A DNA stretch of 64,000 bases from a phage. The stretch is taken from sequence record PZ053912.1; one strand, written 5' to 3'. The translations under genes were made by a program, and so were the position numbers. Below are positions 2,738 through 62,206 of the stretch, in pieces (the stretch's first letter is position 1; each line of letters starts with the position of its first letter). Under the pieces are notes generated by a model. The model worked only from the letters and a program-made list of their open reading frames with translations. It was not told the DNA's origin and did no database searches.

Positions 2738-3002
2738 CTAATTTCCTTAATTGATATTGCAACGAGCTAATAATTTCTTCGTTCATTTTAATATACATGT
2801 CACGCAAGAAAGGTTTTAACCCATCACGAATAATTGCTAACGTATCACCTTTACATAAATTAACCAAATAAGGATGGTCTAAAGCATCCCAACCAGGCTG
2901 ATTAGCATACATACCATAATTTTCTTCCATCATAGCATTCAGGCGTTTGATATGATTAATGTGGGCTTCAATAGCATCAATCTGGAGTTGTTTAAGATTC
3001 AT
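2721..3002 (-). CDS. hypothetical protein (size and position compatible with arn-region ORF)
   Basis: ORF track 93 aa; TAATG overlap with upstream gene at 3002. Confidence 0.45.
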   Translation of the reverse strand: MNLKQLQIDAIEAHINHIKRLNAMMEENYGMYANQPGWDALDHPYLVNLCKGDTLAIIRDGLKPFLRDMYIKMNEEIISSLQYQLRKLDDENN

Positions 3003-3463
3003 TAGTAAAGGTCCTCAGAGTAAAGTTCTTTTTCATTACCACCACGTTCAATACGTACTTGTCCAGCGTAAGTTGCAATAATCATTGCTTCTTCACGTGT
3101 CCAGTAATTAGAGTATTGATCAATAAAGCCTTGGTCGTCGCCACAAACTTGCTGCGAGACTAATTGAGGACCAACTATATCAAGTACTTCAGCCATATCT
3201 TTAGAGTAATGACGAGCACCTGGAATAATAAGAGTTCGTCCATCTTTTAATTTAAAACGATTAGCTGCACAGACAATTCGTCGTTGGTACTTTTGGTTTT
3301 CATCCCAATACAGAGTCTGCCAACAGATTTCAGGAACTTCATCTAAAACATTTTGTTCTGTATATTCACCGCCGTAAGAAGCTAATTTAGCAGCCAGACT
3401 TTCCGGAGTCTCACGCGACAAAGCTTTATCTAACAGAGCTAAACGTTCTTTAAAAGTTTTCAT
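3002..3463 (-). CDS. hypothetical protein
   Basis: ORF track 153 aa; tightly packed with neighbours. Confidence 0.5.
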
Positions 3464-15716: not shown

Positions 15717-16142
15717 TTATTTAAATTTAATTTTCTGAAGTGCATCAATTGCAGCCAAACGCCCTTGTTCACTTTTAACTGTAATGACCACATCGCCTGA
15801 TACGATCACCGAACCATCAACAAATTCTATAGAGCCTTTTTTGAAATCGACAGCTGTATCTGGTTCCGGAACTTCTTCAAAAAATTTAAATTCTGCACCA
15901 TAAAGCAGAATATCACCTTGCATACTATGAATAGTTCGGCCATAATCGCCTACGGCTTCTACAGCAATCACCGAAACGCCGTAACCAATCATCTCTTCCG
16001 CAATAAAATCTTTGGACAATAAAGTAGTATGCAGATTAGTATTAAGACGTTTACCAGTCGTATTAAGAATTCTCAAGAAATTATCTTCCTGTCCTTTGAT
16101 AATACGATATTTCTTACCAACTTCAAAACCTTTAAAAGCCAT
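15717..16142 (-). CDS. hypothetical protein (141 aa; size and position compatible with T4 goF)
   Basis: ORF track, ATG start at 16142; immediately downstream of 39. Confidence 0.4.
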   Translation of the reverse strand: MAFKGFEVGKKYRIIKGQEDNFLRILNTTGKRLNTNLHTTLLSKDFIAEEMIGYGVSVIAVEAVGDYGRTIHSMQGDILLYGAEFKFFEEVPEPDTAVDFKKGSIEFVDGSVIVSGDVVITVKSEQGRLAAIDALQKIKFK

Positions 16143-16326: not shown

Positions 16327-16737
16327 TTATTCCTTAAAATGTGCTTTCAACATTTGATACAAAGACCATGCCTGGTCGTTATTTTCGATAGTAATCGTCA
16401 TCACCGGAAATTCAGACAATTCGTCAAGATCACCAGAATCTTGCTCTTCGGACGCTAGATATGGATTTTCAACTTCGTCAAAGAACTCTGCTTCATTCGT
16501 GGAGAGCCAGATAAAGTTTTCATCAAGGATATCACCGCCTGTTGCGTATCCAACCGTGCCAGTAGATGTCACAATTTTAGTAGGACGACCAAGATGGTCA
16601 ACATCTAATACTTTAAATGGTTCCATGCCAAGCCGTCGTGCATAAATCCCATTATCAGTGTGGTCTTTAATAAACTCTTCTTGGGCACGTTTATCTATAA
16701 ATTGGTACCATGAGTTAACGCGGAATTTATTAGCCAT
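16327..16737 (-). CDS. hypothetical acidic protein
   Basis: ORF track trimmed to ATG at 16737 (TAATG overlap with upstream gene). Confidence 0.45.
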
Positions 16738-16964
16738 TAGTAAGTTTCCTTCCAATAAGTTGTACCGTTTTCAGTGATTTCACGGAAGATACCATAGATA
16801 GGCATTTCATCGCCGAGTTTTTCGTAAACGTAAACCACTTCGGTGTAGCATAAAAATTCGGTCCAGTTTTTCTGTACAACAACTAAATCAGGATTAAACA
16901 GAACATCTTCAAACTCATCGATGTTTGAATCAGTAGTTACGTTTTTAATGATTTGACGTTTCAT
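16737..16964 (-). CDS. hypothetical protein (75 aa from ATG 16964)
   Basis: AGGAG SD before ATG at 16964; track N-terminal extension would run through the promoter. Confidence 0.45.
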
Positions 16965-16993
16965 AATATTCTCCTCTTGTTTTGATAAGTCTA

Positions 16994-17018
16994 TAGTATC
17001 ATAGACCATAGTTGTTGT
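16994..17018 (-). promoter_or_regulatory. early promoter (TGTACA-N17-TACTAT)
   Basis: Read from sequence. Confidence 0.4.
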
Positions 17019-17021
17019 ACA

Positions 17022-17546
17022 TCATTTTAGCAAAATAAAATCAACTTGTTCTGCCAATGAACGTCTAAACATTAATTGACAACTTCCGAGGATGAAATCA
17101 GGTGCTTCATAGACCGCGATGTAGTATCCTTTAGCTTTCAAGAGTTCAACATCCACCTGGTCATCAAACCATGCATAAACCGCGCCAACGCTTTCAAATC
17201 CAAAATAGAACCCTTGAGCCCAATCTTCACTCAATTCAAATGTGTACTCAATTCTATGGTATCTTAAGATATTTTGTTCAAGAAGTTTGTCTTCATTTAC
17301 TGTAGGACGATTAGGGACATTATAGTTGTCGCCGTGATGGTAGAAGTTACCTGAGAGTATTCCATGCTTATCAAGGAACTCCCATGTTTCTTCAGAGTTG
17401 TCAGTGCCAGACCAACCGTAAGGTGAGCGAGGTTCTTTATTCCAAGAGGTTTCCCAAATTCTGACGGCTTTACCGTCTTTGATAGCAATTCCTGGTAATG
17501 ATTCACGTTGAGTACAAAAACTACGTTCTACGCGGTAAACTAACAT
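17022..17546 (-). CDS. hypothetical protein (174 aa)
   Basis: ORF track; ATG with AGGAG SD. Confidence 0.5.
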   Translation of the reverse strand: MLVYRVERSFCTQRESLPGIAIKDGKAVRIWETSWNKEPRSPYGWSGTDNSEETWEFLDKHGILSGNFYHHGDNYNVPNRPTVNEDKLLEQNILRYHRIEYTFELSEDWAQGFYFGFESVGAVYAWFDDQVDVELLKAKGYYIAVYEAPDFILGSCQLMFRRSLAEQVDFILLK

Positions 17547-17552
17547 ATTATT

Positions 17553-17601
17553 CTCCTCTGGTTGATATGGTTATAATATCAAAACCAGAGGAGAAGTAAA
17601 C
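17553..17601 (-). promoter_or_regulatory. early promoter (GTTTAC-N17-TATTAT) with -10 enclosed by perfect 11-bp inverted repeat ctcctctggtt / aaccagaggag
   Basis: Read from sequence. Confidence 0.5.
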
Positions 17602-17605
17602 AACT

Positions 17606-18025
17606 TTATGCGAAAGCAGCTGGGCTATATTTTTTAATTTGGAATTCAGGAACTACCATGAACTGACCAGCGAAAACGATGTTATAAAGCTTAACACCAT
17701 CTTCTACCCAACGGTCGCTAATAAATCCGGCGATTTGCTTAGTTTTCCATGGCGTTCCATCAGTTGCCGCAGCAATAGTGAATTCATGGTCTTTTTCAAC
17801 AGAAACTGATCTGCATAGTCCCCATTTGAACGCTTTTTCTTCTGGCTCAATGAACTGGCTTGAGACGTAGCCAATATTACCATTAGCATCACGAACTTTA
17901 ACTTGGTTACGACCAAAAACCGGATCACTCACAGAAAGAACTTCAACCAGCTTCCCGGCAACTTTAGAGCGAGAAGCAACAGATACATATACGTAATCAC
18001 CTGTAGAGAGATTTACAATATTCAT
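17606..18025 (-). CDS. hypothetical protein, member of tandem paralog trio (139 aa)
   Basis: Shares C-terminal motif GFISD(R/Q)WVEDG.KLYNIVF.G.F.VV with the next two genes. Confidence 0.55.
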   Translation of the reverse strand: MNIVNLSTGDYVYVSVASRSKVAGKLVEVLSVSDPVFGRNQVKVRDANGNIGYVSSQFIEPEEKAFKWGLCRSVSVEKDHEFTIAAATDGTPWKTKQIAGFISDRWVEDGVKLYNIVFAGQFMVVPEFQIKKYSPAAFA

Positions 18026-18034
18026 AATAATTCC

Positions 18035-18490
18035 TTAAGCTTTACGAGGAGACACATAGCGAGTGATTTCAGATTCTTTAACAACTCGGAAGTCACCTAA
18101 GAATACGATATTGTATAACTTTTCACCATCTTCAACCCATTGGTCACTGATGAAGCCGCACATAATATCAGTTTTGTTTGGATAACCATATTCGTCGATG
18201 AAATCAAATTCTTTATCAGTCCGGAATTCAACGCCTTTGCAAAGGGCCCATTTGAACTGTACATTAGGTTCAGTAGAAGCAAAATGAGCGCTCACATGAG
18301 TTTCCAAGAATTTAGGACTTACGTAAGCGTACTGAGTTTCAGTTTTTCCAGAACTAGGAATGATTCGAACTTTAACTTCTTTAACACGTCCAGTACCATT
18401 AGTACGAAGTCCTACCACTTCAACTAGACGACCTGCAGCTTTAGAACGAGATGCAGACGATACACGCTTAATTTCACCAATAGTAATCAT
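18035..18490 (-). CDS. hypothetical protein, tandem paralog (151 aa from ATG 18490)
   Basis: As above; track start 18553 trimmed to internal ATG. Confidence 0.5.
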   Translation of the reverse strand: MITIGEIKRVSSASRSKAAGRLVEVVGLRTNGTGRVKEVKVRIIPSSGKTETQYAYVSPKFLETHVSAHFASTEPNVQFKWALCKGVEFRTDKEFDFIDEYGYPNKTDIMCGFISDQWVEDGEKLYNIVFLGDFRVVKESEITRYVSPRKA

Positions 18491-18520
18491 AATTTCTCTC
18501 TCTTTGTTTAAATTGAATTC

Positions 18521-18550
18521 ATTATACTCCATCCATCCTTGGATGTACAA
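18521..18550 (-). promoter_or_regulatory. early promoter (TTGTACA-N17-TATAAT), attatactccatccatccttgg cassette
   Basis: Read from sequence. Confidence 0.45.
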
Positions 18551-18552
18551 CA

Positions 18553-19047
18553 TTAATTAAGGATATTAACCACAGCACTACGTGGAACTACACTAAAATC
18601 ACCTGCATGAACAACGTTCAGAAGTTCAACACCGTCTTCAATCCACTGATCAGTTACCCATCCATTTACTGGACCTGCGAACGGACGTCGAATTGAAACA
18701 TATTTACACAACAAATCAGTAGGCTCAATAGGCTTAATCAGAGTACCGTACATACAAGCGATATCCATATCAATACAGATATCTTTAACGGGTTCTACTT
18801 CTTCAATCAACAGTTCAAAGTCGGTGCTTGGAAGGGCGGTAGTAGAAATTGTACCATATGAATTTTTAATTTCTAAGAATAACCAAGGGCCTTCAACTTG
18901 TTTGATGAAGTTAACAATAGTGAAACTATTACCTTGAGTGGCACCTAAAATTTCACAAAACTTTTCATAAGCTCGCACTGAAGCACCGTACCAGTTGATT
19001 TGTTTTTCATCTTTCAGGATGTAAGTAGCCGTTGTATTGATATTCAT
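18553..19047 (-). CDS. hypothetical protein, tandem paralog (164 aa from ATG 19047)
   Basis: C-terminal GWVTDQWIEDGVELLNVVHAGDFSVV; AGGAAA SD; track start 19089 is TTG. Confidence 0.5.
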   Translation of the reverse strand: MNINTTATYILKDEKQINWYGASVRAYEKFCEILGATQGNSFTIVNFIKQVEGPWLFLEIKNSYGTISTTALPSTDFELLIEEVEPVKDICIDMDIACMYGTLIKPIEPTDLLCKYVSIRRPFAGPVNGWVTDQWIEDGVELLNVVHAGDFSVVPRSAVVNILN

Positions 19048-19077
19048 AATGTTTTCCTGTTTGGTTAAGATAGAAAG

Positions 19078-19107
19078 ATTATACTCCAACCATCCTTGGT
19101 TGTAAAC
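19078..19107 (-). promoter_or_regulatory. early promoter (GTTTACA-N17-TATAAT) within 46-bp cassette repeated at 60172-60217
   Basis: Read from sequence. Confidence 0.5.
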
Positions 19108-19112
19108 TGGTT

Positions 19113-19790
19113 TTATCGCTGTTTTACACTTAACAGGTCAGGATTCTCAGGGACATCTTCAAGGCCAAGCGCATAACGCTGAGCATATTTTAACATCAAA
19201 ATATCTTTAGCACAATCGTGAATACTATCATGGGCAACGAATCCTTTTAGCGTACCCATCGGTAATGGACACATACTTAATCCTCGTGTCAACGAGTAAG
19301 CTTCGATTGCTGTACGAATATCACGTTGAGCCCAGAATTTAACTGGTTCTAATTTATCAGTATCAATATCTGGTTCAAGAACACCTTCATCACGATAGAG
19401 GTCACGAATCAAATCGACCAAGATCGGGAAGTCAAAGCTCATACCACGGCACCACATCTGTGATTTCCATTGGTCAACTTTATTAGCTCGACAATAATCT
19501 AAAAAGATTTTAATGCCTTCAAGCGTAGTGACATCGTCTTCAGACGGAGTCAAGTTTTTACGCGCTTCTGCTGATTGTTCTTTCCACCATTTCATAGTGG
19601 ATTTAGCGAAAACTCGCTTCCCTTTCTGAGAAGCTAAATTAAATTTAATTCGCTTACCTCGTTGAACAAGTTCTTCAAATGATTCAACAACTTCTGGGTC
19701 GGAATTATATGCAATAACCGCAAGGTCAATAACAGCCGCTTTTGATGTATTGCCGAATGTTTCAAAATCTATAATAACATCAGTGCTCAT
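19113..19790 (-). CDS. dexA: exonuclease A (DEDDh 3'-5' exonuclease)
   Basis: 225 aa (T4 227); N-terminal IDFETFG exonuclease motif; upstream of dda as in T4. Confidence 0.85.
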   Translation of the reverse strand: MSTDVIIDFETFGNTSKAAVIDLAVIAYNSDPEVVESFEELVQRGKRIKFNLASQKGKRVFAKSTMKWWKEQSAEARKNLTPSEDDVTTLEGIKIFLDYCRANKVDQWKSQMWCRGMSFDFPILVDLIRDLYRDEGVLEPDIDTDKLEPVKFWAQRDIRTAIEAYSLTRGLSMCPLPMGTLKGFVAHDSIHDCAKDILMLKYAQRYALGLEDVPENPDLLSVKQR

Positions 19791-19799
19791 AATTTTCTC

Positions 19800-21113
19800 T
19801 CAAATAAAATGGACGTCAAACCGGCCACGAGTTGTGCCGACATACAATAACTGTTTAGCTAATTCTGAATCGGCATAATGGATACATGGTGTATAAACAA
19901 AGGCCGTGTCAACAGACATACCCTGGGCCTTATGGAAGGTTGATACTGGTAGTGCCTTCACCTTAGTGAACATACGTTTAGCATCCCAGAATTCGCTCCA
20001 TGGAGCTTTACCACCTTTATTCCAGAATTTGTATGTTTCTGCTGTCTTAGCCAAAAACAAATTGAATTTATAAAGCTCTTCTTCAGAAGAAATAACCTTT
20101 ATATCTTCACGGATGTATTCTTCATCATCCCCATATGTTTCTACTGTAAGATTCCAATATCGTATCATATATTCGCCCGAAACACCACGTGCTTTAACGA
20201 ATGTAGACGTTTCTACAGCATCTCGAATACGAACGAATTGCCCGTTATTGAAAAGCATTTCGGTCATATTTTTACCATCTAGCTTATATGTCTTAGTAAA
20301 TGGCTCTTGTAGAACAATGACTTCGTCTTTAATAAATGGTTTTTCTGTTTCAAGAAGTTTTCGGCGAATAATTGAATTTAACTTGTCCACCGACTTATTT
20401 GTGAATGCCATCATTCGATTTTCGAAAAGGTCTTCAGGAGTTTTAACGACGTTAAAATAGTTCATCATATACGATTTAAGGTCTGTATATCCATGAACAC
20501 CATGCCCATCAACTACTTTATCGTAAATCCATTTGCCATTACGAATATCAGTAGCAACATCAATAATTGGTGCATTGCTACGTTTAACTTCTGTAAGGTT
20601 GCATTGCACGAAGTCTTTGTGAGTGAAGAAAGGACTTAGATATGCAGTTGATTCGCCTGGGTCTACCGGACGAATCTGGCACCGGTCGCCGATTCCAATT
20701 ACTGTACACCATTTAGGGATACTAGCTAACATTATTTTAAACAGAGAACGGTCGCACATTGACGCTTCATCAAATAACAGTACACGGCACAAGGCTAAGT
20801 CGGGAACCTTTTTCTGTTCAAACAATACGTTTTCTTCGTATGTAGTTGGGTTGATTTTAAGAATGCTATGAATAGTCGATGCTTCTTGACCCGCAAGTTT
20901 GCTTAGAACCTTTTTAGCGGCATGTGTAGGGGCTGCTAAAATAATACCTGATTCTCCAGAAGAAATAAGGGCTTCAACGATGAATCTAGTAAGGGTTGTT
21001 TTACCTGTACCAGCAGGCCCATTAATAGTTACGTGATGTTTCTTTTCTTTAATAGCGTTCATAACAACGTTGAAGGCGTTTTTCTGGCCTTCAGTCAAAT
21101 CATCAAATGTCAT
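19800..21113 (-). CDS. dda: Dda DNA helicase (SF1B)
   Basis: 437 aa; MTFDDLTEGQKNAFN.., GPAGTGKTT Walker A, matches T4 Dda. Confidence 0.9.
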   Translation of the reverse strand: MTFDDLTEGQKNAFNVVMNAIKEKKHHVTINGPAGTGKTTLTRFIVEALISSGESGIILAAPTHAAKKVLSKLAGQEASTIHSILKINPTTYEENVLFEQKKVPDLALCRVLLFDEASMCDRSLFKIMLASIPKWCTVIGIGDRCQIRPVDPGESTAYLSPFFTHKDFVQCNLTEVKRSNAPIIDVATDIRNGKWIYDKVVDGHGVHGYTDLKSYMMNYFNVVKTPEDLFENRMMAFTNKSVDKLNSIIRRKLLETEKPFIKDEVIVLQEPFTKTYKLDGKNMTEMLFNNGQFVRIRDAVETSTFVKARGVSGEYMIRYWNLTVETYGDDEEYIREDIKVISSEEELYKFNLFLAKTAETYKFWNKGGKAPWSEFWDAKRMFTKVKALPVSTFHKAQGMSVDTAFVYTPCIHYADSELAKQLLYVGTTRGRFDVHFI

Positions 21114-60185: not shown

Positions 60186-60215
60186 ATTATACTCCAACCA
60201 TCCTTGGTTGTAAAC
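60186..60215 (-). promoter_or_regulatory. early promoter, copy of the 19064-19109 cassette
   Basis: Read from sequence. Confidence 0.5.
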
Positions 60216-61181: not shown

Positions 61182-61210
61182 ATTATACTCCAACCATCCT
61201 TGGTTGTACA
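61182..61210 (-). promoter_or_regulatory. early promoter, same cassette family (tattatactccaaccatccttggttgtaca)
   Basis: Read from sequence. Confidence 0.5.
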
Positions 61211-62206
61211 TCATTCCTTAAGAAGTTTTACTACCTGAATAAGATTAGCTCGTTCTGTTTTATTTTTACTGTTTAAGCCTGCTAATCGTGAGATTTCATC
61301 GTCAGTCTGTTGAATAGTTACATTAAGTTCGTTAATCAAAGCTTCAAAGTATTTGATTTGCTCAGCATGTTTTGATTCGAATTTCTGAACCGGAATAACG
61401 TCTTGGTTTAGTTCATCAATAAGGTCTTTAAGAGCATCTTCTTGGTTGATATCATATTCAACTTCTTTTATTTCTTCAACGAGCTCGTCTTTATATCTAA
61501 CGTCTTTTAGTCCTGGTGCTGGTCCTGAAATCTCTTCTTTAAGAGTACAAACATATCCAATACGGTATCCAATGCTGTCTCGCTTGATATCAACTTCGTC
61601 GATAAATCCACAATGTTTAAGTCCAGAGCCGATTAGGTCAAAATATCCTTGACGTCGTCCTTCAAACGTTACACGAACTACTAAGACAGTTTTACCTGCG
61701 ACCTTTTGAAGCTCACATTTATAAAAGTCTGTTGAACCTGAATAACGTGGATGAGTTTTAAAGTTCATCTGACGATCTAGGCCCATTTGTAAGCGTGCTG
61801 ATACGGCCATAAAACGTGTTTGATTCTCGTTAAGATGAGCAACAATCCATTTCAAAGGCATTTTACACTGTTCACGACCGAACAAATCAGTACGTCCTAG
61901 ATTACGCAGGATGTTGTTAGAGTTAATCATCGACAGAACGTTAAGTTTATTCAGCGCGCTGAAGATTCCATCGGCCATTGATTTTCCGTAACCTTTACAC
62001 GCTTTAATAAGCGCTCGTGGTAGGTTAGTATAGATTTCAGACGGCATATGAAAATCAAATTTACTAGTCAGTAATTGATGAACTTGGATAGCAATTTGCT
62101 CATAATTAAGTGCTCTGCGATCATTATGGTCTTTAAACCACACTTTAATCTGTGAAGCACATAAACCGTTAATTTCATGTTTTACCGCATCAGATGTAAT
62201 GCTCAT
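61211..62206 (-). CDS. hypothetical protein with C-terminal coiled coil (331 aa)
   Basis: ORF track. Confidence 0.55.
   Translation of the reverse strand: MSITSDAVKHEINGLCASQIKVWFKDHNDRRALNYEQIAIQVHQLLTSKFDFHMPSEIYTNLPRALIKACKGYGKSMADGIFSALNKLNVLSMINSNNILRNLGRTDLFGREQCKMPLKWIVAHLNENQTRFMAVSARLQMGLDRQMNFKTHPRYSGSTDFYKCELQKVAGKTVLVVRVTFEGRRQGYFDLIGSGLKHCGFIDEVDIKRDSIGYRIGYVCTLKEEISGPAPGLKDVRYKDELVEEIKEVEYDINQEDALKDLIDELNQDVIPVQKFESKHAEQIKYFEALINELNVTIQQTDDEISRLAGLNSKNKTERANLIQVVKLLKE

Follow-up and report, generated by a model that had tools for sequence, protein, structure and literature searches.

In bacteriophage T4, MotB has been described as a toxic early protein that binds both unmodified DNA and DNA carrying glucosyl-hydroxymethyl-C without sequence specificity (PMC6070864, PMC7827196). 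The protein co-purifies with H-NS and StpA and alters the DNase I footprint of H-NS. It up-regulates 75 host genes, around one third of which belong to the H-NS regulon, and raises the burst size approximately 2-fold (PMC6070864, PMC7827196). MotB homologues have been divided into four categories according to their N-domains (Patterson-West et al., 2021, PMC7827196), and the shared C-domain, a duplication hypothesis and the RB69 copy numbers are already in print (PMC7827196). A related locus is examined here in a phage DNA stretch of 64,000 nucleotides (record PZ053912.1), the whole of which is referred to as the window. Positions 17606-19047 of its minus strand hold three consecutive small open reading frames (ORFs), A, B and C, with the coordinates given in the original prediction, in which they were presented as a tandem trio of paralogous proteins. 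Judged by homology and gene order, the trio is the motB.1 - motB - motB (second copy) cluster of a Mosigvirus, an RB69-like T-even phage, and a probable explanation of the locus as a whole is that B provides this cluster with an early role at the host nucleoid, resembling that of T4 MotB. The trio is a rediscovery of a named, published family (Pfam, PHROGs, PMC7827196) which is already known, and many GenBank records name its genes 'MotB-like transcriptional regulator'; the original prediction recognised the paralogues and missed the family. The locus is of value for work on host take-over by T-even phages and of little as a discovery.

A shared C-terminal domain

The block on which the trio was recognised is present in all three adjacent genes, as GWVTDQWIEDGVELLNVVHAGDFSVV in A, GFISDQWVEDGEKLYNIVFLGDFRVV in B and GFISDRWVEDGVKLYNIVFAGQFMVV in C, and each copy contains the core pattern G-x-[IV]-[TS]-D-[QR]-W-[VI]-E-x-G-x-x-L-x-N-[IV]-V. 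Columns G129, D133, W135, E137, D138, G139, L142, N144, V146, G149, F151, V153 and V154 (A numbering) are invariant in the trio, while F123, G129, D133, W135, E137, G139, L142, N144 and V146 are invariant among 27 diverse family members. Pairwise alignment and profile comparison, which had been proposed as a check, have shown that the homology is real. Local Smith-Waterman scores measured against 2000 shuffles gave z values of 14.6 (A-B), 14.9 (A-C) and 46.5 (B-C), the corresponding blastp E-values being ~1e-9, ~1e-9 and 1e-30, and a profile of A-type proteins matched one of B/C-type proteins with a probability of 99.2% (hhalign, E = 1.7e-19). The curated gathering threshold of the Pfam family PF17613 'motB' (25 bits) is passed by A (35.1 bits, residues 84-159, the C-domain alone), B (131.1 bits, full length) and C (75.6 bits). 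A chance or compositional resemblance among three unrelated ORFs has in its favour the shortness of the block (~26 amino acids (aa) as first quoted) and nothing else that was found; it is ruled out by the shuffles, by three Pfam scores above threshold and by hhalign, and the same domain is kept in 778 phage records, all from enterobacterial T-even phages, which leaves this explanation with a negligible probability.

The three proteins are homologous through a small C-terminal beta-barrel of ~57-73 aa, the MotB C-domain of PF17613. Its extent had been drawn too narrowly, as the homology already sets in at an 'LC(K/R)xV' strand that precedes the quoted block. The domain comprises ~57 aa in A; in B and C, where 14 residues are inserted, it comprises ~73 aa. 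The N-termini had been described as divergent, which holds for A alone; B and C are homologous from end to end, with 43% identity over 145 columns and the common motif ASRSKxAGxLVEV. A profile of the C-domain run against the six-frame translation of the window found no further copies beyond A, B and C. The neighbouring gene D, which gave no match with this profile, lacks the MotB C-domain and is therefore outside the MotB family.

Gene order and identity of the phage

Gene A (18553..19047, minus strand) runs from an ATG at 19047 to a stop codon at 18553-18555 and encodes a full-length MotB.1 homologue of 164 aa. Gene B (18035..18490, minus; ATG 18490, stop 18035-18037) encodes a MotB orthologue of 151 aa, and gene C (17606..18025, minus; ATG 18025, stop 17606-17608) a second MotB copy of 139 aa. 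Longer starts exist for A (TTG 19089) and for B (ATG 18553, giving 172 aa); the shorter ones, which are also those of the original prediction, are preferred because the longer ones begin upstream of the genes' own promoters, and the 151-aa start of B is that of the RB69 annotation. The trio is preceded by the dda helicase gene (19800-21113) and the exonuclease gene dexA (19113-19790), and followed by D (17022..17546, minus), a motB.2 homologue of 174 aa which belongs to phrog_1106 and shares 33% identity with T4 MotB.2 (5e-16).

The order in the window is thus dda, dexA, A, B, C, D, cef, goF. With MotB.1 and MotB homologues lying between dexA and D-cef-goF, the proposed correspondence to the T4 cef/motB region is borne out. 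The order in RB69 (NC_004928) is identical: dexA, motB.1, motB, MotB-like, motB.2, cef, goF. In T4 it is dda, dexA.2, dexA.1, dexA, motB.2, motB.1, motB, cef, goF, so that, compared with T4, the Mosigvirus block has one extra motB copy and has motB.2 on the opposite side of the cluster. A 2.8-kb block of the window shares 99.4% nucleotide identity with Escherichia phage vB_EcoM_JQD51 and is covered to at least 80% in 146 phage records. SA35RD, an annotated close relative, is a Mosigvirus, of which RB69 is the type.

B, C and D share 94.7-95.0% protein identity with their RB69 counterparts, and the flanking goF and motB.2 lie close to the trio at 94-95%. The proposal of tandem diversification stands as far as a paralogous family is concerned; since each paralogue is ~95% identical to its RB69 counterpart, the diversification appears to be ancient rather than ongoing.

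Genes B and C

B comprises a basic KOW/SH3-like N-domain (residues 1-62, 18305-18490), a linker (63-78) and the C-domain (79-151, 18038-18256). It shares 48% identity with T4 MotB (blastp, 1e-43) and 95% with RB69 MotB. In C, the N-domain, which is likewise KOW/SH3-like (1-62, 17840-18025), is followed by the C-domain at residues 67-139 (17609-17827). C shares 37% identity with T4 MotB (blastp, 8e-25), matches phrog_1671 (6.6e-51) and is the counterpart of RB69p010. The SRSKAAG-LVEV motif of the KOW/SH3-like N-domain, belonging to MotB proper (category 1 of Patterson-West et al., 2021), was found. B shares with T4 MotB the arrangement in two domains, the basic KOW-like N-domain, the early-gene position between dexA and cef and the presence of a separate early promoter; the architecture of C is likewise that of T4 MotB.

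The two copies differ in charge. The N-domain of B has a net charge of +8 (isoelectric point (pI) 10.7) and its C-domain one of -3, against +5 and +1 in T4 MotB and 0 and +1 in C, making B the only paralogue in the trio with a strongly basic N-domain.

Gene A and the MotB.1 type

A consists of an N-domain (codons 1-84, 18796-19047), a disordered linker (85-107, 18727-18795) and the C-domain (108-164, 18556-18726). It shares 37% identity with T4 MotB.1 over 134 columns (blastp, 1e-26) and matches phrog_2333 (1.7e-82); in a Foldseek search of viral models (BFVD), its predicted structure matched T4 P39415 (E = 1.5e-9). The N-domain is homologous to residues 1-82 of T4 MotB.1 and is followed by a MotB-type C-domain. 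As in T4, A lies directly upstream of motB, with the same helix-plus-five-strand N-domain. It differs in being 164 aa long, in having its MotB C-domain intact and in a linker of 23 residues that contains DMDIACMYGTLIKP, whereas the T4 protein that has been studied is the 119-aa ORF of the reference record, which ends within the C-domain.

The protein is acidic (pI 4.5), with net charges of -4 in the N-domain, -2 in the linker and -3 in the C-domain. The MotB.1 N-domain has been modelled as an LSm-like barrel common to GoF and Frd.2 (Kim et al., 2025, PMC12152347). The acidic N-domain of A is LSm/SH3-like, as in T4 MotB.1, the kinship with GoF and Frd.2 being taken from that study. This gives rise to a different account of A, and perhaps of C, in which the LSm-like N-domain binds transcripts and modulates mRNA stability or translation while the C-domain recruits a partner. 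The homology to the T4 N-domain modelled as LSm-like (PMC12152347), the helix plus five strands predicted for residues 1-84 and a pI of 4.5, which speaks against non-specific DNA coating, all favour such action on RNA, which is nonetheless considered unlikely.

The motif D-[MF]-D-[IV]-A-[CS]-M-Y-G-T-L-[IV]-K-P lies in the low-confidence linker of A, at residues 89-102 (window 18742-18783). In the relatives P0036, P0038, P0043 and P0031 the same motif occurs at the extreme N-terminus or between duplicated N-domains. A conserved motif that keeps to no fixed position and lies in a disordered segment is what would be expected of a linear binding motif.

On the same strand, a goF homologue (15717-16142), which is 136 aa long when read from the ATG that RB69 uses, and a 141-aa ORF beyond gp39.2 (16327-16755) have starts resembling the 'K-x-Y-x-[IL]' of MotB.1-type N-domains. 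From this resemblance, both may be candidate members of the LSm-like group of PMC12152347.

Predicted structures

An AlphaFold2 (AF2) model of A, built on a 33-sequence alignment, has a mean predicted local distance difference test score (pLDDT) of 78.7. Residues 1-84 form a helix plus five strands, the linker (85-107) falls below a pLDDT of 50, and the C-domain (108-164) reaches ~90, with five strands, the fourth and fifth of which are separated by a short helical turn. The model of B has a mean pLDDT of 84.3 and consists of an N-barrel (1-62), a linker (63-78) and a C-barrel (79-151) with a long first hairpin. Each protein of the trio consists of two barrels joined by a flexible linker.

An OB-fold has been proposed for the C-domain on the basis of HHpred, with eIF5A (Patterson-West et al., 2021, PMC7827196). 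This assignment was not reproduced in a fold search, where no classical OB-fold protein was present among the 60 matches listed, the matches not being assigned to either domain. From these matches the C-domain alone may be of the OB or the SH3 type. In the models, both halves have an SH3/Tudor/KOW-like appearance, in place of a KOW joined to an OB. Among viral models, Foldseek recovered members of the MotB.1/MotB family, and no PDB chain was matched by sequence (the best E-values, 0.6-0.9, are meaningless).

Range and modularity of the family

An exhaustive HMMER profile search of 1.84 billion representatives yielded 29 clusters (50% identity), all of 251 aa or less, and no relatives outside T-even phages. 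Orthologues of the C type, with an identity of 80% or more, are present in 208 records, among them PP01 and ST0, and some of these lie outside Mosigvirus. C-domains 74-88% identical to that of A are fused to varied N-terminal arrangements, namely KOW-like N-domains (P0058, P0065), a single LSm-like domain behind the D-[MF]-D-[IV]-A-[CS]-M-Y-G-T-L-[IV]-K-P motif (proteins of ~180 aa) and duplicated N-domains (~250 aa). There are also chimeras of B-type and C-type halves (P0155, P0224). The relatives of 180 and 250 aa gave no other significant Pfam domain in their alternative N-termini, and the name 'adenylribosylating enzyme' on one record received no Pfam support in the scan.

Frameshifts in the T4 and RB69 reference records

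The T4 reference motB.1 (NC_000866, locus 2215-2340 minus; cf. window 18556-18650) encodes 119 aa and ends in ...VTDQWIGRWR*. The frame is shifted here by an additional G (attgGaaga); read in the +1 frame, the sequence goes on as EDGVELLNVVHAGEYSVVPRSAVVAILN*, an intact MotB C-domain. This G is confined to AF158101.6/NC_000866.4 and is absent in 13 other records (T4, T4T, RB55, RB59). A 432-nt motB.1 coding sequence (143 aa) is annotated in MT984581 and HM137666, and the 143-aa protein (P0011) is found on 256 contigs. The MotB.1 studied in PMC12152347 is given as 13.8 kDa, in agreement with the truncated 119-aa ORF; functional work on MotB.1 has been carried out with a protein from which most of the conserved domain is missing.

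In RB69, motB.1 (NC_004928, locus 2877-3373; cf. window 18553-19047) has been annotated in two parts, one of 132 aa and a separate ORF of 29 aa, RB69ORF012c. In the window the gene is a single uninterrupted ORF of 164 aa; in the RB69 record it is split by two extra T residues ~50 nt apart, which are confined to AY303349/NC_004928; 66 other matching records align over 84/86 query bases at this site. The 29-aa peptide is the 'Category 3 peptide' of PMC7827196 and is, from these alignments, the cut-off end of MotB.1 and not a separate gene class. Both the 'short' T4 MotB.1 and the orphan RB69 peptide are peculiar to the reference records.

These records bear on whether one or two of the copies could be duplicates that are redundant or in decay and have no separate function. 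T4 has a single motB, its motB.1 mutants show no phenotype (PMC12152347), and motB.1 is disrupted in both reference records, all of which would fit decay. The disruptions, however, are confined to those records, with all other T4 and Mosigvirus records in frame, while the trio is found intact and conserved in 146 records or more and C-type orthologues extend to the 208 records mentioned above, some beyond Mosigvirus. Decay is for these reasons regarded as quite improbable.

Proposed function

As to what the trio does, T4 literature and sequence suggest that it would be transcribed by unmodified host RNA polymerase right after infection. B would then act like T4 MotB, coating DNA without sequence specificity and changing how H-NS and StpA sit on it, and so would lift H-NS silencing or reshape the nucleoid, with a modest rise in burst size. 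From its charge, the basic KOW-like N-domain of B-type proteins is the probable seat of non-specific DNA binding. The shared C-domain is more likely to be a structural or protein-contact module, serving self-association or a common host partner, than a DNA-binding surface, because its invariant core (G..D.W.E.G..L.N.V) is acidic or hydrophobic; the N-domains would supply the differing nucleic-acid or partner specificities of A, B and C. With one of three paralogues having the charge profile of a DNA coater and all sharing an acidic core, the split of function between the domains becomes testable. By analogy with T4 MotB, B can with moderate confidence be taken as an early non-specific DNA binder that remodels H-NS/StpA-DNA complexes, and A and C are paralogues with the same C-terminal barrel.

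Several points weigh against carrying the T4 role over to this cluster. The identity of B to T4 MotB is no more than 48%, and the function known from experiment is that of T4 MotB, the Mosigvirus copies being known from their genes, so that the transfer proceeds by analogy. The T4 papers do not identify the DNA-binding domain and leave open whether the contact with H-NS is direct or mediated by DNA (PMC6070864, PMC7827196), and the role suggested above for the C-domain is drawn from charge and conservation. C is electrically neutral and may not bind DNA. Deletion and knock-down mutants of T4 motB.1 show no plaque or burst phenotype, and T4 MotB.1 had no effect in an RNA reporter, the construct being the truncated 119-aa form (PMC12152347).

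The trio had also been proposed as a host-interaction or anti-defence module. Host interaction holds, in that T4 MotB, which co-purifies with H-NS/StpA and relieves the repression of part of the H-NS regulon, is a host-interaction factor (PMC6070864, PMC7827196), and a classical anti-defence activity was found for no member. In a strict anti-defence module, the paralogues would have diversified against different host immune systems and the binding of H-NS and DNA would be incidental. This would suit genes in a dispensable, hyperplastic early region, a promoter cassette reused elsewhere in the genome, the modular N-domain swaps and chimeras of the family (P0155, P0224, P0058) and the toxicity of T4 MotB to the host (PMC6070864). 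Yet the literature found ties no family member to any defence system, the identity of ~95% to RB69, near that of goF and motB.2 (94-95%), bears no sign of an ongoing arms race, and the family is a narrow one that has been kept in T-even phages from many different hosts. Such a module is judged rather unlikely, somewhat more so than the action on RNA considered for A.

A bolder and tentative proposal, to which a low probability is given, goes beyond the MotB-like role of B. The C-domain might be an acidic SH3/Tudor-like 'anchor' barrel, and not a DNA-binding OB-fold, through which all family members self-associate or dock on a single host protein shared by them, for which H-NS/StpA would be the obvious choice, while exchangeable N-domains and the linear motif confer different activities. 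These N-domains are a basic KOW in B, a neutral KOW in C, an acidic LSm-like domain in A and a duplicated LSm-like domain in the 250-aa relatives. Were this true, a phage with three paralogues would bring a small combinatorial system to bear on the host nucleoid, and the experiments in which T4 MotB.1 was reported to have no effect would have to be repeated with the 143-aa protein.

Promoters and the boundary hairpin

Two of the genes had been credited with promoter cassettes of their own, and these were found for A and B. The early (sigma-70 type) cassette of A (19078..19106, minus) has a -35 TTTACA, a 17-nt spacer and a -10 TATAAT (11/12 match), and that of B (18521..18549, minus) reads TGTACA-17-TATAAT (10/12). 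They are the two best sigma-70 matches in a 3.2-kb scan (16700-19900) and agree with the early promoters of T4-type phages, which have a GTTTAC-like -35 and a TATAAT -10, and the A cassette is annotated as a promoter in OL960577. The scan gave 10 promoter-like sites against 9.6 expected from shuffles, which is no excess, so that the case for the promoters rests on match quality, position and the fourfold occurrence of the cassette. Both promoters contain the 22-nt string CCAAGGATGG(T/A)TGGAGTATAAT, which occurs 4 times in the window and in none of 100 shuffles, and which at the A promoter is CCAAGGATGGTTGGAGTATAAT. The stop codon of A abuts the -35 of the B promoter. C lacks a separate promoter and begins 9 nt past the B stop, behind an AAGGAA Shine-Dalgarno sequence; the arrangement predicts co-transcription of C with B and, through read-through, also with A.

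Two more exact copies of CCAAGGATGGTTGGAGTATAAT lie at 60186-60207 and 61182-61203 (minus). The A copy and the 60186 copy are alike over ~46 nt, the 5' untranslated region included, and the promoter cassette is therefore a reused unit. The cassettes at 60186 and 61182 precede genes of unknown function for 314 and 311 aa (phrog_1435, phrog_2351), and a gene for 331 aa (phrog_2257, 61211-62206) lies just upstream of both, ending within the second one. All three products have coiled-coil-like C-termini; the genes were considered as another paralogous trio, and this was rejected since blastp shows no similarity among them.

A boundary element lies 3' of C (17551..17600, minus), where a hairpin (17551-17595; free energy (dG) -24.6 kcal/mol, z -5.7) is interleaved with a promoter-like site (9/12; -35 TTTACT 17595-17600, -10 TATTAT 17573-17578). 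The 5' arm lies between TTTACT and TATTAT, and the 3' arm pairs with the Shine-Dalgarno sequence of D, GAGGAG. OL960577 annotates this hairpin as a 'terminator'; it was not called as an intrinsic terminator in the scan and has no T-run after the stem, and that assignment was rejected. It can be read instead as a candidate element that sequesters a ribosome-binding site and contains an internal promoter. In that case, read-through transcripts should hide the ribosome site of D and transcripts begun inside the hairpin should expose it.

These elements resemble the mobile promoter-and-stem-loop (PeSL) cassettes described for T4-type phages (Arbiol et al., 2010, PMC2839356; Comeau et al., 2014, PMC4122927), in which a short early-promoter cassette is likewise repeated in variable early regions. 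A promoter-plus-stem-loop unit moves here with motB.2, to another position than in T4, while the copies before A and B are promoters without a stem-loop. The likeness is a resemblance, not a call of membership.

The hairpin-promoter design itself is also seen before T4 motB.2 (NC_000866 locus 3165-3225, minus), with a dG of -27.6 and a z of -6.5, despite the different position of the gene.

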